This document shows positions 1 through 38,113 of a stretch of 64,000 bases of DNA, in pieces. The stretch's first letter is position 1; each line of letters starts with the position of its first letter. The position numbers and the translations under genes were made by a program. The notes beneath the pieces were generated by a model. The model saw only the letters and a list, made by a program, of their open reading frames with translations, was not told the origin of the DNA and searched no databases. This DNA is from Candidatus Nomurabacteria bacterium (lineage in GTDB: Bacteria; Patescibacteriota; Minisyncoccia; Phycocordibacterales; SBAW01), in NCBI GenBank assembly GCA_943356495.1, contig CALRFF010000003.1, positions 551-64,550 of the forward strand. Direction: 5' to 3'.

Positions 1-3000
1 ACCATACCTCCAACACCTCTGCACCCGAGACAGACTATCTCTTGCTCGACTCAACGGCCGCCACTGCAGACGACGACACGTACTGGAACGACACCAAGCC
101 GACTGCATCTGTCTTCTCCGTCAAGTCTGCCACTGCCGTCAACGCCTCCGGCGCCACCTACGTCGCATACCTCTTCGCCTCCACCACGGGCTTCTCCTCA
201 TTCGGCTCCTACACGGGTAACGGCAGTGCCGACGGGCCCTTTGTCTACACTGGTTTTAAACCTCGCTTTGTGCTTGCTAAGCGGACCGACTCAACAGGTG
301 ACTGGTTTATGATCGACTCTGCGCGGACTACCACTACTAACCCCATAATTCCGACTGTGTGGGCCGATTTGGCGGATGCGGAGCAACTCAGCACCGCTCA
401 GGCTGACTTTAATGCAAACGGTTTTAAGCTCCGTTCCACCGGAGGCATAAATACCAGCACAGCAACCTATATCTACGCCGCATTCGCCGACGTGCCGTTC
501 AAATATTCCTCCGCAATCTCCGACGTCGGCGCGCTCTCCATCGCCAACTCCGCGCGGTTCATCTCGGGCAACAGCGATTATTTGAGCAAGACACCCGGAA
601 GTGCAAGCAACCGCAAAACCTGGACTTTTTCAACCTGGGTGAAACGAGCTGAGCTTGGCGCATATCAAAATATCTTTCAGATAGGAACAGCGGGTTCAGA
701 TTCGACGACATTCAATTTTCGTTTCGACTCCTCCGACCGTCTCGATATTGGAGGTGGCGCGACCACGTGGCGCGTTACGAGTGCGGTGTACCGCGATCCC
801 GCCGCTTGGCTTCATCTAGTGTTGGTAATGGATACGACCCAAGCGACTGCCGCCGACCGAATAAAACTGTATGTGAACGGCTCGCAGGTAACGGCGTTTG
901 GCACAAACGCTAATCCGACGCAAAATGCCGATCTCGCCGTCAATAACAACGCACTGCACGCAATTGGTAGGCACAATGACCCCACACAGTATCTCAACGG
1001 ATATCTATCGGATGCTCACTTGATAGACGGCGCGGCGTTGGCGCCGACATGCTTTGGCGAGACAGACGCTAATGGATATTGGAGGCCGAAGACCTACAGC
1101 ACCGCGTCGCCCTGCGCGGCATACGGCACCAACGGATTCAAGCTCTCGTTCGGCACGGGGAGTGCGCTCGGCACCGACACTTCCGGCAACGGCAACACGT
1201 GGACAGTCAACGGTCTTACCTCGGTCGACCAAGTTATCGACACACCCACTAATAGCTTCCCTACATTGAGCCCTATCGGTAATGTGGTTGCAGCGACGAG
1301 CCGCAGTACTCTGGCGAACGGCAATCTGAAAGCATCATCGGGTGCCGCGGTAAACGGATTACTCGCTACGCAAGAGTTCCCCACAACCGGCAAATGGTAC
1401 TCAGAGATAACACTGAATACCGCGCCGCCCTATCCATCACTCGGCCTAGCAATTTCTCAAACTGCCAACCAGCAGTACATAGATGCGGGTGTATATCTTA
1501 ATAGCTCTACGGGCATTTGGTACAACTCACAAAGTGCCACCGGACCGGCTACGAGCGATGCCGTAGGATTGGGCACATGGTCGAGCGGCGACGTGCTGAA
1601 CATCGCCTACGATGCGGACAATGGCAAGATATGGTTTGGCAGGAATGCCACCTATTACAACTCGGGAGATCCCGCCGCCGGCACTAATGCTACTTTTTCC
1701 GGTTCTGTTGTCGGTAGTAACAGATGGCAAGTCGGTGTCGGGACATATACCGGAGATTTGACCGTCAACTTCGGCCAGGGAGGTTTGGCCAGCCTGACCT
1801 ACGACTCCGCAGCGGGTGGCTACTTTAAATACACCCCACCCTCGGGCTACAAAGCCCTCTCGACCGCCAACATGGCGACACCCACCGTGACGGTGCCTAA
1901 AAATTATTTTGATGCCGTTACTTATCTCGGCACAGGCGCTGCAGAGACAGTCAAGGCATATGCGGTAACAGAAACATTTTATTACACGGGTGCGGACCAA
2001 ACATGGACAGTCCCAACAGGAGTCACCTCAATACGCGTAAAAGCGTGGGGTGCGGCAGGAGGCTCAACATCGCAAACGGGGGCTAACGCGGACTATGCAG
2101 GCGCGGGCGCGTATGTGACCGGAGAGATAAGTGTAACTGCAGGACAAACCTTAAAGTTGGTAGTAGGGCAGGGCGGTTCGCCCCGTGCAACCTCGGGGGG
2201 GCAGACGTATGGTGGTGGTGGCGGCGCCGGTACAAACAATGGGGTGTCGCCGGGCACGGGCGGGGGATATTCTGGCATATTTCTTACCTCGGTAAGCCAA
2301 GGCAATGCACTCGCCGTCGCGGGCGGCGGCGGCGGGTCTGCCAACACGAGCGACGCCGCTCAGTCTGGCGGAGCCGGAGGAGCCACGACCGGCTCGACAG
2401 GCACAGGGCCCGGCGGTACGGGTGGTACTACCTCGGCAGGTGGTACGGCCGGCACCGCAGGCTCAGGCCAAACCAACGGCTCGGCTCTTACCGGCGGCGA
2501 CGGCGCAACGCTCAACGGCGGCGGCGGCGGCGGCGGATACTATGGCGGCGGCGGCGGCGGGCAAACGACATCCGGCGGCGGCGGTTCAAGCTACCTTGGC
2601 ACCATGACAAATGCGTCAACAACCGCGAGTTCGGATGGTCATACTGCACCAAAAAAATCTGATCCCAATTATCCTAGTGGTGGAGTTGGCGAGGCTGATA
2701 CCACAGGAAATGTATCGGGTGGAAGCGGGCATATTGTCATTAGTTACAATATAAGCAACGTCACCGGCTTTACCCCCGACATCGTGTGGATTAAAGACCG
2801 TACGAGTGCGAATGCGCACGGGATTTTTTCCACTTCAACAACGCTGTATCCAGCGTGGGCGAGCAACGGCTCTGCGGCCGAAGGGGGCGGCACTACTGCC
2901 TTGCTCTCGTTTTTGAGTAACGGCTTTAGTCTCGGTGCATCTACCACGGTTAACACCAGCGGCGACAGTTATGTAGCCTGGATGTGGAAGGAGAGTGCAA

Positions 3001-3704
3001 CCGCCGGTTTTGACATCGTTACCTACACGGGCACGGGCGCCGCACAAACTATCGCCCACAGCTTGGGCAAAGCGCCTGACTTTATTATCGTCAAGCGCCG
3101 CGACGGCGCCGGCAGCCCGGCGGTGTATCACACCTCCAACACCTCGGCACCTGAGACCGACTACCTTTTGCTTGACTCGACTGCCGCCACCGCCGACGAT
3201 GATACTTACTGGAACGATACTAAACCGACTACGTCGGTGTTTAGCGTCAAGTCCAACACCAACACTAATTCCTCGGGCGCTACCTACGTGGCGTATCTCT
3301 TTGCCTCTACCACCGGCTTTTCCAACTTCGGCACTTATATAGGCAACGGCTCCGCCGACGGGCCGTTTGTGTATACGGGCTTCAAACCGCGTTTCCTGAT
3401 GTGGAAGCGAGTAAACAGCACAGGCTCATGGGGTGTCTATGATACGGTCCGTTCCACGTACAATCCGGCAACCGCAGGACTTCTTTTTGAGGAGAAGGGA
3501 GCAGAATTTTCCTACGATGCTTTTGATGTCCTCTCCAATGGATTCAAAGTACGTGCTGCAGGAGCAGGCACAAACGCGAGTAGCGATACACATATCTACT
3601 TTGCGTTTGCTGAACAACCGTTCAAATACTCCGCCGCTTCCGCATCCTCGGCAGCCTCCACTTTCGTCCAAGCAGTCGCCTTCCTCCTCGGCATGACGTT
3701 CTAA
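1..3704 (+). CDS. Very large secreted/surface protein, 5'-partial. Domains: LamG/ConA-like (~nt 600-900), SPRY-like (~nt 1380-1800), ALK-type glycine-rich domain (~nt 2000-2600). A ~130-aa module is duplicated at the N and C termini.
   Basis: The ORF continues in frame to nt 3 (HTSNTSAPETDYL upstream of the TTG at 42), so the gene starts outside the window. LamG_3-like pattern WTFSTWVKR...WLHLVLVMD...IKLYVNGSQV. SPRY-like GKWYSEITLN...GIWYN...GDVLNIAYDADNGKIWFGRN. Gly-rich block WTVPTGVTSIRVKAWGAAGG...LKLVVGQGG...GGGGGGGYYGGGGGG. The terminal modules (aa ~1-90 and ~1045-1135) are about 90 % identical in protein but diverged in nucleotide sequence. Confidence 0.7.
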   Translation, partial: HTSNTSAPETDYLLLDSTAATADDDTYWNDTKPTASVFSVKSATAVNASGATYVAYLFASTTGFSSFGSYTGNGSADGPFVYTGFKPRFVLAKRTDSTGDWFMIDSARTTTTNPIIPTVWADLADAEQLSTAQADFNANGFKLRSTGGINTSTATYIYAAFADVPFKYSSAISDVGALSIANSARFISGNSDYLSKTPGSASNRKTWTFSTWVKRAELGAYQNIFQIGTAGSDSTTFNFRFDSSDRLDIGGGATTWRVTSAVYRDPAAWLHLVLVMDTTQATAADRIKLYVNGSQVTAFGTNANPTQNADLAVNNNALHAIGRHNDPTQYLNGYLSDAHLIDGAALAPTCFGETDANGYWRPKTYSTASPCAAYGTNGFKLSFGTGSALGTDTSGNGNTWTVNGLTSVDQVIDTPTNSFPTLSPIGNVVAATSRSTLANGNLKASSGAAVNGLLATQEFPTTGKWYSEITLNTAPPYPSLGLAISQTANQQYIDAGVYLNSSTGIWYNSQSATGPATSDAVGLGTWSSGDVLNIAYDADNGKIWFGRNATYYNSGDPAAGTNATFSGSVVGSNRWQVGVGTYTGDLTVNFGQGGLASLTYDSAAGGYFKYTPPSGYKALSTANMATPTVTVPKNYFDAVTYLGTGAAETVKAYAVTETFYYTGADQTWTVPTGVTSIRVKAWGAAGGSTSQTGANADYAGAGAYVTGEISVTAGQTLKLVVGQGGSPRATSGGQTYGGGGGAGTNNGVSPGTGGGYSGIFLTSVSQGNALAVAGGGGGSANTSDAAQSGGAGGATTGSTGTGPGGTGGTTSAGGTAGTAGSGQTNGSALTGGDGATLNGGGGGGGYYGGGGGGQTTSGGGGSSYLGTMTNASTTASSDGHTAPKKSDPNYPSGGVGEADTTGNVSGGSGHIVISYNISNVTGFTPDIVWIKDRTSANAHGIFSTSTTLYPAWASNGSAAEGGGTTALLSFLSNGFSLGASTTVNTSGDSYVAWMWKESATAGFDIVTYTGTGAAQTIAHSLGKAPDFIIVKRRDGAGSPAVYHTSNTSAPETDYLLLDSTAATADDDTYWNDTKPTTSVFSVKSNTNTNSSGATYVAYLFASTTGFSNFGTYIGNGSADGPFVYTGFKPRFLMWKRVNSTGSWGVYDTVRSTYNPATAGLLFEEKGAEFSYDAFDVLSNGFKVRAAGAGTNASSDTHIYFAFAEQPFKYSAASASSAASTFVQAVAFLLGMTF

Positions 3705-3721
3705 AGATAGTTAAAACACAA

Positions 3722-3745
3722 GTTAGTAGTGAGTAGTTTGTAGTC
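3722..3745. repeat. Left inverted copy of the dispersed ACTAC(C/A)AACTAC repeat family, flanking the IVS-protein gene
   Basis: gttagtagtgagtagtttgtagtc is the reverse complement of the core found at 4145-4169, 4327-4357, 5015-5038 and 5613-5648. Confidence 0.6.
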
Positions 3746-3801
3746 AAAAAAGAAAATCCAAAACTAGTACACTACTAACTACGCACTATCAACTAACTTC
3801 T

Positions 3802-4179
3802 ATGTCAAATTTCAGAGAACTAAAAGTATGGCAACGGGGGATAGAATTAGCAAAAGAAATATATAAAACTACCCACGCAATGCCCTCGTCGGAAACTTTT
3901 GCCTTACAGGGGCAGATGCGCAGAGCTGCTGTTTCTATCTCTTCTAATATTGCAGAAGGCTCTAAGCGCAGTACTCGGAAAGACTTTGTCCATTTTCTGC
4001 ATGTGGCAGATGGTTCGGCTGCCGAATTAGAAACACAGATCATCATCGCGAAAGACTCCTATCCTAAGCTCGATTTTTCACGGGCTGATGCTTTACTCGA
4101 CGAGGTCCAAAAAATGCTCTTGGCTATGAGGCGCTCTCTGAGTCCTACTACAAACTACAAACTACCGACTCCCCACTAG
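3802..4179 (+). CDS. Four-helix-bundle protein of the 23S rRNA intervening-sequence protein family
   Basis: Family hallmark ELKVWQ...AMPSSETFALQGQMRRAAVSISSNIAEGSKRSTRKDFVHFLHVADGSAAELETQIIIAKD. Confidence 0.85.
   Translation: MSNFRELKVWQRGIELAKEIYKTTHAMPSSETFALQGQMRRAAVSISSNIAEGSKRSTRKDFVHFLHVADGSAAELETQIIIAKDSYPKLDFSRADALLDEVQKMLLAMRRSLSPTTNYKLPTPH
4145..4169. repeat. Right copy of the ACTACAAACTAC repeat (encodes the C-terminal TTNYKLPT of the IVS protein)
   Basis: ctactacaaactacaaactaccgac. Related copies at 4327-4357, 4961-4984 (inverted), 5015-5038 and 5613-5648. Confidence 0.6.
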
Positions 4180-4183
4180 CTAT

Positions 4184-4969
4184 ATGCCTCCGAAAATTGA
4201 AAATAAAAATTTGGATGCTGTACAAGATTTGCTTGTACAATCGAGTATGCAGATGGTGCAGCCGCCGGTTGTGAGTAACGACCAAGCGGCTAGTGTGCTA
4301 GTGGGTAGCGGAACTATAAACTCCTCACTACCAACTACCAACTACCAACTACAAACTCCGGTTGTTGCTGCACCTCCGCCGGTCGCCCCGACTCCGCCGC
4401 CTCCTACACCTATCTATACACAAGTTGCCCAGCCGGTTGCCGTTGTGCAACCAACACCGGTTACTGTTGCGCCACCGGTTGCGCACTCCAGACTACGGCC
4501 GTTGCTTGGCCCCGCACTGTTTTTATTCGGGGTCGCGCTGGTGGCCTACTCGGTGCGGTTGGGGAGCATCACCGGAGGCTCGATGGAACCTACCTTGCAC
4601 GAAGGCCAACACTTGGTTATCGATGCGCTCACGTGGCGCTTTACCGGTGTGCATCGCGGCGATGTGTTGGTGTTTACCAACCCGCACGACCGCACAACGG
4701 TCGAGGTAAAGCGCGTGATAGGCCTGCCGGGAGAGTCGGTACTTATCGAGGGCGGTACTATCGGGGTGACGCCGCTTGGCGGACGGTACGAGGAGTTTCC
4801 GCAGGGGACCGACATAGGCGGGCATGGCGATATAGCCAACTTTACTATCCAGCTCGGGGTAGAGGACTTTTTTGTCCTCGGCGACAACCGCCCCAAAAGC
4901 ACCGACTCCCGCGACTTTGGCGGGGTGCAGGCGGTCGACATTATCGGGCGGGTAATAGCTAGTTTTTAG
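4184..4969 (+). CDS. lepB: Signal peptidase I (LepB family) with a ~100-aa proline-rich N-terminal extension. The true start is uncertain.
   Basis: Catalytic boxes GSMEPTL (Ser), KRVIGLPGE (Lys) and GDNRPKSTDSRDFG. One TM segment LLGPALFLFGVALVAYSV precedes the catalytic domain. Confidence 0.8.
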   Translation: MPPKIENKNLDAVQDLLVQSSMQMVQPPVVSNDQAASVLVGSGTINSSLPTTNYQLQTPVVAAPPPVAPTPPPPTPIYTQVAQPVAVVQPTPVTVAPPVAHSRLRPLLGPALFLFGVALVAYSVRLGSITGGSMEPTLHEGQHLVIDALTWRFTGVHRGDVLVFTNPHDRTTVEVKRVIGLPGESVLIEGGTIGVTPLGGRYEEFPQGTDIGGHGDIANFTIQLGVEDFFVLGDNRPKSTDSRDFGGVQAVDIIGRVIASF

Positions 4970-5039
4970 TTAGTAGTGGGTAGGGTAAATCAAGTTATAA
5001 TTACTCTATCCGGAACTACCAACTACAAACTACAAACTC

Positions 5040-6233
5040 ATGCAACAAATTCTTAACTTTTTCAAATACAACAACGCGTTCCCTATTATGCTCGGGGTTA
5101 TATTCCTCGGCTCGGGGGCGGCGTTTGCCGCGGTTGACCCCGAGGCGGTGTACTCGGCCCAGCAGGAAGTTATTTCGGTAGACAACACCTACATTGCGGG
5201 CAAAGACTTTACGCTGTGGACGCCGCGCATACTTATCAATGAGGTGACCGAAGACGCCGACAACTATTACGTCGCCTATGCACTTACCACTATCGATGTG
5301 GTTGACTACGCGTGGCGCGATGCCGCAAAAAATAATGTCATGACCGTTTCCAAGGCCGACCTCGGCGTGCGCGACTTGGGAGTGTACGTTACCGGCCAGT
5401 TCCGCAACATTATCCAGAACGAGCTCGCGTACTTGACCGAAGTGCAGACCAACGCTAAAAAAGCGATTTCCCAAAAAATAGTAGCAACCACCTACGGCGG
5501 GCTTATCGGCAAGTTCCTCGACTCGACCACCGAAACACTGCCGGGGTATGTGCCGGTAGTACAACCGCCAACAGCGAGTAACGACCAAGCAGCTAGTGTG
5601 CTAGCGGGTAGCCAAACTACTAACTCCTCACTACCCACTACCAACTCCGGTGGTTCTTCTAACTTGATGTCGTTGCAGGTGCTCGGCAACAACCCCGCGC
5701 GCGTGGCGGTGGGCGGCGGTTACCTCGACCTCGGGGTCTTGTCGGTCAACCCGACCAACCCCAACATCGGGTACCATGCGTTTGTAAACGGCATACCAAG
5801 CGACCCGCCAAGTATTGATACCTCGACCACCAGCGCGCATGTTATTGAGTATCGCGCCACTGACCAGGCGGGTAATCACTTAAAGGTGGTGCGTATTGTG
5901 TTGGTGGGCGACGCACCCGACCCGGGCGGCGCGATAAACAAAGCAGGCAATGTGCCGACGATTGTACAAGGGGAGATAAAACCGCCCGAGCCCGAGCCGG
6001 CACCTGCGCCCGCTCCCACAAGTGCTCCCGCCGCTGCTCCTGTAGAAACGCCGGCAGCGACCACAACCGAACCTGCTCCCGAGCCGGAGCCCGCTCCTGC
6101 TCCGGCGGCCGAAGAGCCGGCGCCTACGCCCGCACCCGTGGTTGAAGAACCTGCCCCTGTCGCACCCGTCGAAACTCCGCCGGCTCCTGCAGAGACACCT
6201 CCCGCCGAAGCAACAGCGACCACCACTCCGTAA
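5040..6233 (+). CDS. Secreted protein with a signal peptide, a bacterial Ig-like segment and a low-complexity PEPAP-rich C terminus
   Basis: N-terminal signal MLGVIFLGSGAAFAAVDPEA. Ig-like HVIEYRATDQAGNHLKVV. C-terminal PEPEPAPAPAP repeats. Shares a ~75-nt duplicated segment (5584-5650) with the lepB gene (4271-4350). Confidence 0.55.
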   Translation: MQQILNFFKYNNAFPIMLGVIFLGSGAAFAAVDPEAVYSAQQEVISVDNTYIAGKDFTLWTPRILINEVTEDADNYYVAYALTTIDVVDYAWRDAAKNNVMTVSKADLGVRDLGVYVTGQFRNIIQNELAYLTEVQTNAKKAISQKIVATTYGGLIGKFLDSTTETLPGYVPVVQPPTASNDQAASVLAGSQTTNSSLPTTNSGGSSNLMSLQVLGNNPARVAVGGGYLDLGVLSVNPTNPNIGYHAFVNGIPSDPPSIDTSTTSAHVIEYRATDQAGNHLKVVRIVLVGDAPDPGGAINKAGNVPTIVQGEIKPPEPEPAPAPAPTSAPAAAPVETPAATTTEPAPEPEPAPAPAAEEPAPTPAPVVEEPAPVAPVETPPAPAETPPAEATATTTP

Positions 6234-6415
6234 TGAAAAAATATATCCGCAACCTAAGCGCGCGCGAGCTCCGCAACTTGGCGTGGGTGTGCGTAGGGAC
6301 AGCGGTGCTTATAGGTATGGCGTTGGTATTGTCGGGGAGCATCCCGTTGCCGCAGGGCTTTTCCAAACCGCGTTTGTACGAAGAGCCGAAGCCGTGGGTC
6401 ATGGAGTTGCCGTAA
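6233..6415 (+). CDS. Small hypothetical membrane protein whose start overlaps the upstream stop
   Basis: Single hydrophobic helix WVCVGTAVLIGMALVLSG. ATGA overlap with the preceding gene. Confidence 0.3.
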   Translation: MKKYIRNLSARELRNLAWVCVGTAVLIGMALVLSGSIPLPQGFSKPRLYEEPKPWVMELP

Positions 6416-6444
6416 GCGCAAAATTTTCGTAGTAGAATAATGGC

Positions 6445-6843
6445 ATGAGCGTCTTGCGCATAGCGTTAGTGCTGCTGGCAATTGTTGTAGCCGTGTTCGG
6501 ATTTGCAATAGTGCGGCGCTTTTTTATACCGGGGACCACACCGCTCTTGTCTGAAGAGCGGACCGCTGTGTTCGGCACTCTTATCGAAAAGACTGCCGAG
6601 GCTTTTAGTATCGAGTTACAAGACGGGTCGGTACGTACGATATATATAAGTACAAGCACAAACTTTCTGGCGGCTCCGGTGCCTCTTGCGTACGACGGCG
6701 TTGTCGTCGGCGCTCAGGTGGGTGTCAGCGCCATAGAGGGGGCAAACGGATCACTCGACGCCCGCTCGGTACAAGTCCTCCCGCCCCGCCCCGCACCTTC
6801 CGCCACCTCTTCACCCGCAGCCACTACTACAGTGCAACAATAG
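6445..6843 (+). CDS. Hypothetical membrane-anchored protein
   Basis: N-terminal TM IALVLLAIVVAVFGFAIV. No recognisable domain. Confidence 0.4.
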   Translation: MSVLRIALVLLAIVVAVFGFAIVRRFFIPGTTPLLSEERTAVFGTLIEKTAEAFSIELQDGSVRTIYISTSTNFLAAPVPLAYDGVVVGAQVGVSAIEGANGSLDARSVQVLPPRPAPSATSSPAATTTVQQ

Positions 6844-37201: not shown

Positions 37202-38113
37202 ATGCAAAGCATTACTAACACCAAGGCCACCACGGTTGCGCTTATAGCGGCGCTTATAGTTGCTGCGCTCTTTGTTGCGGCACCCAAGGCACAAGCGGCT
37301 GACCTCGGCGACTTTGGCGGCTCGTATGATTTTTACCCGGACGCTCCGTCGTACGATTTCTACTCGGATGCTCCTTCTTACGATTTTTACCCTTCTGCCC
37401 CCGCATCGGCTCCGTCGTACGATTTCTACCCGGATGCTACTTCGTATGACTTCTATCCCGGCTACAGTTCATACACTCCGTCTTACGGCGGTTCCTACGG
37501 CGGTGGCAGCATGGGCGGCGGCTTCCCGTTCGGCGGTTCGAGCGGCATGAGCCAGTCTCAGTCGCAGAGCTCGACCAACGTCAACACGAACGTCAATACC
37601 AATACCTGCACCAGCGGTAGCTGCAATACCGCAATCAACGCTCCGACTAACATCGTAGTCTCCGGCGGCGGCTCTTCTAATAACAGCTACCCGGTCTACA
37701 CGCCTGTATACACTCCGGTCTACACCCCGCCGGTCTATCAGCCGACGTACTACCCGACCTATCAACAGCCTATCGCGTACAACAATACGCCGTATGTGTC
37801 GCTCTCTGCGGTACCGTACACCGGTCTTGAGCTGGGGCCCGTGGGCACGGCACTGTACTGGGGCTTCCTTATCGCTTGGTGCCTCGTTGCGGCGTACCTT
37901 ATAGTCGTCAAGCGCGTGCAGAACAAACTCGTAAGCGGTCTCAATACCTTCCTCTTCGGTGAGCCTTCTCAGAAGACTGTCGTTCAAAAGTCCTCGGATC
38001 TCCCGTCTGGGTCGGGCCAGACTTTTGCCCGCCAGTCTTCTGCTCCGGTTCGCGACAGCTTCTCTAACATCGACCCGTTTGTCGCGTCGCAAATCAAGCG
38101 CGCCGCGTTCTAA
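37202..38113 (+). CDS. Secreted tandem-repeat protein (5x SYDFYPDAP, PVYT repeats) with a sorting-signal-like VPYTG motif plus a hydrophobic helix and KR
   Basis: Signal peptide ALIAALIVAALFVAAPKAQA. Repeats encoded at 37331-37468. LSAVPYTGLELGPVGTALYWGFLIAWCLVAAYLIVVKR, followed by a ~50-aa tail. Confidence 0.6.
   Translation: MQSITNTKATTVALIAALIVAALFVAAPKAQAADLGDFGGSYDFYPDAPSYDFYSDAPSYDFYPSAPASAPSYDFYPDATSYDFYPGYSSYTPSYGGSYGGGSMGGGFPFGGSSGMSQSQSQSSTNVNTNVNTNTCTSGSCNTAINAPTNIVVSGGGSSNNSYPVYTPVYTPVYTPPVYQPTYYPTYQQPIAYNNTPYVSLSAVPYTGLELGPVGTALYWGFLIAWCLVAAYLIVVKRVQNKLVSGLNTFLFGEPSQKTVVQKSSDLPSGSGQTFARQSSAPVRDSFSNIDPFVASQIKRAAF
37331..37468 (+). repeat. Imperfect 27-nt tandem repeat (x5) encoding SYDFYPDAP
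   Basis: tcgta(t/c)ga(t/c)tt(t/c)tacccggatgctcc(g/t) units read directly. Confidence 0.8.

Follow-up and report, generated by a model that had tools for sequence, protein, structure and literature searches.

In rRNA intervening sequences (IVSs), such as those of Leptospira and Coxiella burnetii, terminal inverted repeats enclose an open reading frame (ORF) for an intervening-sequence protein (IVP), and these elements have long been suspected of being selfish or mobile. The 23S rRNA intervening-sequence proteins were reportedly first described by Ralph and McClelland in 1993. Here we analyze an IVP gene in another genomic setting, found in a 64,000-nucleotide stretch of Candidatus Nomurabacteria DNA (assembly GCA_943356495.1, contig CALRFF010000003.1, positions 551 to 64,550; below, "the window," numbered from its first letter). 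The gene lies between a DUF7483 gene and the signal peptidase I gene lepB, and it is probably carried by an IVS-type insertion cassette, at positions 3705 to 4183, that has inverted arrays of a 7-nt unit as its ends and sits in an operon junction, not in an rRNA gene.

IVP ORFs within rRNA IVSs that have inverted termini are already known, as are IVP genes in rRNA insertions of the candidate phyla radiation. In C. burnetii, tandem GACAGAT units lie upstream of the IVP ORF; their number differs among strains, and RNase III, which excises the intervening sequence from the rRNA without re-ligation of the ends, cuts at the first unit (PMC4990558). IVP genes have also been found inside cas operons (PMC3936711). 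Heptamer repeats are over-represented in bacteria, often as convergent pairs, and their function is unknown (PMC4692102). They include the short tandemly repeated repetitive (STRR) sequences of cyanobacteria, GGGGAYT of Nostoc, GGGAATC of Xanthomonas, and TAACTGA of Beggiatoa, which form tandem runs of about 2 to 26 copies and are mostly intergenic within operons, often as convergent inverted pairs (PMC4692102, PMC4679880). Avd, a protein of diversity-generating retroelements (DGRs), has a homologous four-helix-bundle fold, forms pentamers, and has an accessory role in handling nucleic acids (PMC10053308).

The element in the window resembles rRNA IVSs in that the same protein family lies inside and terminal inverted repeats enclose the ORF, and it resembles the Coxiella IVS in particular in that the 5' repeat consists of tandem heptamers. 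Unlike rRNA IVSs, it lies between the DUF7483 gene and lepB and not in an rRNA helix, and in its predicted fold the partner of the 5' arm is an extra neighboring array and not the far arm. It shares tandem 7-nt units with the published heptamer repeats, and by our own reading of the published units, STRR1 (CCCCAGT), STRR3 (CAACAGT), and TAACTGA fit the pattern nnnnAGn reported below, whereas GGGAATC has no AG. The published heptamer studies made no connection to IVP genes; the arrays described here form the arms of a gene cassette and vary in step with its protein. Repetitive extragenic palindromes (REPs and REPINs) with their REP-associated tyrosine transposases (RAYTs), and MITEs (miniature inverted-repeat transposable elements) with their parent insertion sequences, are similar in having a gene between short inverted repeats, many more dispersed ORF-less copies, and insertions at intergenic junctions whose presence varies among relatives. 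They differ in that the protein here, a helical bundle of 125 aa, lacks HUH/Y and DDE motifs, and the arms of its element are variable 7-nt tandem arrays, with a unit that differs per element, in place of a fixed palindrome. The IVP shares with Avd a homologous, pentamer-forming four-helix bundle (PDB 2gsc), but no reverse-transcriptase family is present among the called genes from about 1.7 kb upstream to 10 kb downstream of the IVP gene, the locus has no template/variable pair, and the score of its protein lies below the Avd cut-off.

Results

An IVP gene between inverted heptamer arrays

The IVP matched PF05635 with 116.1 bits over residues 5 to 106 (cut-off, 33.8) and TIGR02436 with 114.6 bits (cut-off, 24), and so belongs to both families, while its scores against Avd profile models were under the cut-offs. 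A relative with a solved structure is XCC0516 (PDB 2gsc; E = 5e-18). Homologues at 55 to 68% identity came largely from metagenome contigs, and the named ones were Patescibacteria, e.g., Kaiserbacteria and Portnoybacteria; the same locus is present in the metagenome-assembled genome GCA_943356795.1. An exact database look-up of the 125-aa protein returned no record, and a 99-aa call of the same gene is on record. No IVP homologue was found in a phage collection at E <= 1e-8. The cassette encodes no recognizable transposase; it has inverted arms, and no clear target duplication is seen in the window.

Seven array runs of ACTACNA or its complement lie within 3721 to 5646, and there are none elsewhere in the 64 kb. 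The 17-mer ACTACCAACTACAAACT, allowed up to 3 mismatches, had 13 matches in the 64 kb, every one inside the same interval; shuffled sequence gave a mean of 0.04 matches, and 13 were reached in none of 100 shuffles. Tandem Repeats Finder reported period 7 at 3721-3744, 4147-4165, 4327-4357, and 5014-5038 and at no other site in the window, with 2.7 to 4.4 copies per site in the head-to-tail 7-nt arrangement that characterizes STRR-like repeats. The two arms of the cassette (3721-3744 and 4147-4170) form an inverted pair of 24 nt that is 83% complementary, and the right arm encodes the C terminus of the IVP (...SPTTNYKLPTPH). The 5' arm is followed, after 26 nt, by an additional CT-type array at 3771-3795.

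The same heptamer recurs just downstream of the cassette. In the spacer between lepB and the next gene, an ORF-less pair of arrays begins with a unit that is lepB's own end (AGTTTTTAG) and runs up to the next start codon. Two further arrays are in frame within coding sequence, one in the N-terminal tail of lepB and one in the next gene, which encodes a protein of 397 aa, and weak complementary half-arrays lie directly 5' of both. These two genes also share a 96-nt duplication with 82% identity (17 mismatches) and a 73-nt core of 89% identity. A preliminary description of the locus, made from the sequence alone, had named the IVP gene, the inverted pair that brackets it, the coding of the IVP C terminus by the right copy, the copies in the next two genes, and the inverted pair at the lepB/next-gene spacer. 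We recovered all of these, the coding copies as arrays 4313-4357 and 5613-5646 and the spacer pair as 4955-4984 with 5014-5038. The duplication, which it put at about 75 nt, is present and longer (4248-4343 versus 5551-5646). That description had overlooked the 7-nt period, the 3771-3795 array, the half-arrays, and the family-wide architecture described below.

Both intergenic array pairs fold into stable hairpins. Hairpin 3720-3799 ends 2 nt 5' of the IVP start; the fold of 3715-3800 has -21.6 kcal/mol (z = -4.56), and none of 200 shuffles was as stable. Hairpin 4953-5039 has -28.1 kcal/mol (z = -4.63). The coding copies in the lepB tail (z = -0.74) and in the 397-aa gene have no significant RNA structure (z about -0.7).

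Empty sites and a reused junction in relatives

In three relatives (our loci L093, L094, and L234) the order of the DUF7483 gene, lepB, a gene for 364 to 375 aa, GAPDH, rpiB, and rpe is kept, with an extra 53- to 60-aa gene between the 364- to 375-aa gene and GAPDH in L093 and L094 only. All three are syntenic with the window and have no IVP gene, no heptamers, and no spacer hairpin, which answers the question, raised with the preliminary description, of whether the 3705-4180 unit varies in presence among relatives. The lepB proteins of the relatives used as empty sites are 61 to 68% identical to that of the window. An empty form of the window's junction would read TTCTAATGCCTCC. In L093 the junction is TTCTAATGCCTCCG, in which the upstream stop overlaps the lepB start; the window has TTCTAA, 479 nt, and then ATGCCTCCG. 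Because the upstream stop codon in L093 overlaps the start codon of lepB, 3705-4183 is an insertion. The spacer between lepB and the next gene measures 70 nt in the window versus a conserved 15 nt (TGATAAAATAA...) in L093, L094, L234, and L236, and the repeat hairpin within it is an insertion too.

Other relatives carry other material at the junction that the cassette occupies. L098 has a divergent IVP gene there that forms one reading frame with lepB, and its repeats, which are quite different, also occur within lepB; L235 has, at exactly the same junction, a Y1-transposase gene between GC-rich palindromes; and L236 has a 177-nt insert. The DUF7483-gene/lepB junction is a hot spot for insertions. 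L235 also has five AG-type units (CGGATAG three times, TGGATAG, and TGAATAG) exactly between the lepB stop and the conserved spacer.

The repeats of L098 (5860-7140; GCA_943354425.1) and of three fusion proteins (P0155, P0159, and P0160) are purine-rich, of the AAAGGGG type (GEKGEKGE...), and lie around the IVP and in both the IVP and the lepB parts. The repeat-derived inserts of such IVP-lepB fusions are highly variable among strains. RAYT-like Y1 transposase genes with GC-rich palindromes (CCTGCGCAGGTCTGACCTGCGCAGG) occur in the neighborhood in L235 (60-990), L236 (4440-5300), and L098 (1-206).

Heptamer arms at IVP genes across phyla

We compared IVP genome loci from many phyla, taking the best 80 of at least 593 confirmed matches; the analyzed set of 79 loci consists of 77 of those 80, L007, and the window, and arrays were detected with simple thresholds. 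Within about 130 nt of IVP gene ends, period-7 arrays occur at 2.95 per kb, versus 0.141 per kb in the remainder of these loci (21-fold). Near the gene ends, periods 5, 6, 9, and 10 reach 0 to 0.08 per kb and period 8 reaches 0.62 per kb. The median array comprises 3.7 units. On the upstream side, the median distance from the end of the array to the ATG is 21 nt; on the downstream side, the array begins about the stop codon, and the ORF often runs on through it. Inverted arms could be aligned without gaps in 68 of the 79 loci (median, 26 bp; 86% complementary). The upstream and downstream flanks of a locus pair with each other at -43.5 kcal/mol, versus -28.9 kcal/mol with the flanks of other loci (p = 2e-12), and in half of the loci (39/78) the own pair is better than all 10 mismatched partners.

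The heptamer varies in sequence from locus to locus, and once the units are aligned in phase, two neighboring positions hardly vary (A, 0.88; G, 0.94), giving nnnnAGn. The order is polar: AG is found in 38 of 44 upstream arrays (p ~1e-11) and CT in 40 of 49 downstream arrays (p ~1e-10), where 0.36 is expected by chance. In the sequence logo, T precedes the fixed AG in 53% of units, so many 5' arms carry TAG every 7 nt, which would close all three reading frames to translation entering the element, while the 3' arm would stay open. CTA or CTG, as read on the complementary strand, resembles the initiation trinucleotides of bacterial primases.

IVP identity falls as the heptamers diverge, from 55% at a heptamer distance of 0 to 42% at a distance of 5 (Mantel p = 0.0005), which indicates that arms and gene are inherited together or matched to each other. 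Arrays located farther away in a locus carry the heptamer of that locus's own IVP flanks in 32% of cases, versus 3.4% for the flanks of other loci. In 59 of 73 loci, both neighbors point the same way as the IVP gene, and the gaps to them have medians of 57 and 44 nt; examples of such operon junctions are those between an ABC ATPase and a permease (L007) and between a response regulator and a kinase. With co-directional neighbors and almost no room for a promoter or terminator of its own, the gene is most likely transcribed by read-through. Neither the window nor any of the 79 IVP loci contains a conserved rRNA motif, and Rfam, searched at a permissive threshold over 3000-6500, gave chance hits only.

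Nostoc plasmids and arrays in metagenomes

Nostoc plasmids that are about 90% identical include both filled and empty sites. In three of them, gene 3 and gene 4 are separated by 3 nt (TTCTAG-att-ATG); in two, (CAGGAGT/CAGAATT)n, an IVP ORF, and (ACTCCTG/AATTCTG)n lie exactly between these genes. ATTCTAR (7 nt) is found on both sides of the arms plus ORF, and ATTTAA was also seen flanking insertions. The neighboring spacer of the same plasmids is empty, or holds a solo array, or holds ORF-less hairpin elements, which have identical arms, the same as those of the gene-bearing element, differing loops, and one common insertion point.

Where ACTACMA arrays occur in metagenomes (80 loci), 11 have an inverted partner upstream and 1 has it downstream, so the order of AG-type before CT-type is intrinsic. 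AACTACC, the window's own heptamer, occurs in arrays of unrelated Patescibacteria genomes (L024, 655-685; L067, 5747-5776; L187, 665-695) and of many metagenome contigs; particular units thus recur across lineages.

Neighboring genes and strain variants

The positions of the cassette, the arrays, and the adjacent genes are given in Table 1. An N-terminal tail of about 105 aa precedes the membrane segment of the window's lepB protein. Of nine aligned relatives, six have a shorter tail that starts with MP, whereas the start in the other three is MS or lies in or close to the membrane segment. Since the MP start is common to six of the nine, the long tail with its in-frame array is coding sequence that has grown. 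The repeat segment of the 397-aa protein (gene at 5040-6233) occupies a variable linker without adding to its length, and the corresponding linkers of L093 and L094 have no heptamers.

Table 1. Features of the cassette and its surroundings in the window
Feature	Position	Strand	Details
Whole inserted cassette (left hairpin, IVP gene, right arm)	3705..4183	+	Between DUF7483-gene stop (3702-3704) and lepB ATG (4184)
5' arm, AG-type array	3721..3744	+	AGTTAGT AGTGAGT AGTTTGT AGT (reverse complement of ACTACNA); period 7
CT-type array	3771..3795	+	ACTACTA ACTACGC ACTATCA ACTA; 3' half of hairpin 3720-3799
IVP, 125-aa four-helix-bundle protein	3802..4179	+	PF05635, E = 1e-33; TIGR02436, E = 2e-33
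3' arm, CT-type array	4147..4170	+	ACTACAA ACTACAA ACTACCG ACT; within IVP ORF (TTNYKLPT)
Signal peptidase I (lepB)	4184..4969	+	PF10502, TIGR02227
Copy 1 of 96-nt duplication	4248..4343	+	82% identical to 5551-5646
In-frame repeat copy in lepB tail	4290..4357	+	Degenerate AG-type 4290-4310, then CT-type array 4313-4357 (4.4 units)
ORF-less heptamer hairpin in lepB/next-gene spacer	4953..5039	+	AG-type arm 4955-4984, loop ~30 nt, CT-type arm 5014-5038
Copy 2 of 96-nt duplication, inside 397-aa gene (5040-6233)	5551..5646	+	Contains in-frame CT-type array 5613-5646

Upstream of the cassette, a giant DUF7483/laminin-G/glycine-rich protein (42-3704) ends in ...AFLLGMTF, and a small signal peptidase I gene always lies directly 3' of its gene (window, L093, L094, L098, and L234); the stop of the former and the start of the latter overlap or nearly touch in several relatives. 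The two look like a dedicated substrate-peptidase pair, and the ...AFLLGMTF end is possibly a C-terminal sorting signal. Elsewhere, the window has 27- and 66-nt tandem repeats at 37322-37487 (score, 100 to 153) that are probably coding and are not related to the heptamers.

In the region directly before the cassette (3591-3700), four strain variants (L001 to L003 and L005) show many substitutions and a 9-nt indel relative to the window. L001 and L002 also diverge from 5048 on, and L003 and L005 end soon after. The identical block 3701-5047 beside a diverged flank may reflect a recent block exchange or an effect on assembly of the internal duplication in the upstream gene.

Discussion

We consider it likely that 3705-4183 is an insertion cassette of the IVS type, with inverted heptamer arrays as its ends, in an operon junction and not in an rRNA gene. 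A single IVP gene (PF05635) is enclosed by inverted arrays of three to four units that follow nnnnAGn on the inward-reading strand (nnGTAGT in the window, with ACTACnn on the far side). On this reading, the arms are simple-sequence arrays with fast turnover, and further arrays of the window's heptamer have arisen close by, namely, the ORF-less hairpin in the spacer behind lepB and the in-frame copies in the two flanking genes; a 96-nt copy has passed between lepB and the 397-aa gene. A mobile or recombinogenic cassette that had seeded its neighbors was already suggested in the preliminary description. The empty sites, the insertion hot spot, the 79 loci, the sharing of heptamers between flanks and distal arrays, and the Nostoc plasmids for the most part agree with this suggestion; the direction of seeding into coding sequence is the part that we infer. 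We suggest that, as DNA, the arms serve to delimit a unit that moves or recombines. Once transcribed, they can form hairpins, which may be cut by RNase III, by analogy with what has been published for rRNA intervening sequences. A pentameric, Avd-related IVP may bind the AG-phased arrays, as suggested by its homology to Avd, its pentameric relatives, and the fixed AG at a 7-nt phase.

Several observations weigh against the cassette reading. An IVP gene adjoins the ACTACMA arrays in only one of the 80 metagenome loci, there in the predicted position, and in 29 of the 79 loci that lack the gene the arrays lie within long ORFs; arrays being far commoner than IVP genes, they can exist, and probably arise, without the gene. 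The array of L235 has no IVP gene in the 990 nt upstream of lepB that its 1.8-kb contig covers. The empty-site comparison spans about 35% lepB protein divergence, so the exact ends of the insertion and any target duplication in the window are uncertain. No movement was seen: the strain variants L001 to L006 are identical across 3701-5047, with no change in heptamer copy number, and variants of another element (P0100) are likewise identical, and this identity makes the strain variants uninformative on repeat instability. The IVP loci that we compared were the best matches and not a random sample, and the IVP has no known catalytic motif. At the RNA level, the fold of 3700-4200 pairs the 5' arm with the near 3771-3795 array and not with the far arm, so that the outer flanks do not form the IVS-like stem for which the preliminary description had suggested a folding check, and the fold of the whole element is unremarkable (z = -1.41). 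When G·U and A·C mismatches between arms are compared on the sense strand, G·U is not favored (45 versus 53; p = 0.48), and transversions dominate (141). With no excess of G·U, selection for RNA pairing is not demonstrated, and the symmetry of the arms suits an RNA stem no better than it suits the ends of a DNA element.

An alternative hypothesis is that the arrays are ordinary simple-sequence repeats born of slippage and that the IVP is a resident gene in a repeat-rich patch. The metagenome arrays without the gene would fit this hypothesis, as would the L235 array, which grows out of the native lepB stop, and the reported over-representation of heptamers in bacteria (PMC4692102). It is nevertheless unlikely, given that the enrichment at IVP gene ends is strong and specific to period 7, that the arms are matched, inverted, subject to the AG polarity rule, and co-variant with the protein, that arms and ORF are jointly present or absent in the relatives and the Nostoc plasmids, and that the 64-kb window has no arrays elsewhere. 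The hairpins could also be host regulatory structures that evolved in place as mRNA stabilizers, attenuators, or devices for translational coupling, beside an incidental IVP. Both intergenic hairpins are indeed very stable (z about -4.6) and end 1 to 2 nt before the next start codon, and the second has a 5' arm that overlaps the stop codon of lepB. We regard this explanation as quite improbable: these hairpins are absent in relatives with the same operon, hairpins of other units accompany IVP genes in unrelated operons and phyla, and the arms have no wobble-pair signature of RNA selection.

GTAG, which is contained in the window's unit, is the conserved tetranucleotide of REPs, and with the ORF-less hairpins and the Y1_Tnp genes in the same neighborhood of L098, L235, and L236, it raises the question of whether REP/REPIN-like hairpins are being moved by a Y1 (RAYT-type) transposase encoded elsewhere, with the IVP as passive cargo. 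We rejected this reading for the window and consider it very improbable. A tblastn search found no Y1 homologue in the 64-kb window, in L235 it is unrelated GC-rich palindromes, not heptamers, that border the Y1 gene, and it is AG alone, not GTAG, that is conserved across loci whose arms co-vary with the IVP. The homology of the IVP to Avd, its weak matches to the bAvd and DivGenRetAVD models (PMC10053308), and the location of the duplicate in variable linkers of two adjacent proteins could point to the remnant of a DGR, in which the IVP would be the Avd accessory and the 96-nt duplicate a template/variable pair. There is hardly any chance that this is so, and we rejected it: the score against the Avd equivalog model NF033474 is 21.8 bits (cut-off, 80); no reverse-transcriptase family is present among the called genes from about 1.7 kb upstream to 10 kb downstream of the IVP; and the 17 mismatches are not confined to adenine, with 4 and 8 involving A of either copy and 5 involving none. 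All four alternatives fit the data less well than the insertion cassette.

Going further, we speculate, with considerable doubt, that IVP genes and AG-phased arrays might constitute one unrecognized, pan-bacterial class of insertion elements with the arrays as ends. A pentameric, Avd-like protein would bind one unit per subunit, as the trp RNA-binding attenuation protein (TRAP) does on spaced (G/U)AG triplets, and would promote array formation, cargo exchange, or movement; the heptamers of cyanobacteria, and possibly of other bacteria, would then be ORF-less progeny of such elements. In the searchable, incomplete literature, we found no paper that connects IVPs with heptamers in general or that describes the AG rule, the habit of sitting in operon junctions, or ORF-less elements that share arms, but only the note on heptamers in a single organism, Coxiella.

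The findings bear on annotation, in that the arms extend or fuse neighboring ORFs (the lepB tail; the IVP-lepB fusions P0155, P0159, and P0160) and add repeat peptides to real proteins. The function of IVPs has been a puzzle since they were first described, and thousands of copies are annotated merely as "four helix bundle protein." No better explained are the heptamer repeats found in cyanobacteria, Xanthomonas, and sulfur bacteria (PMC4692102). The IVP gene lies almost always within inverted heptamer arrays with a fixed AG, and with this association the two puzzles become one testable question: does the IVP recognize the arrays, driving insertion or RNA processing?

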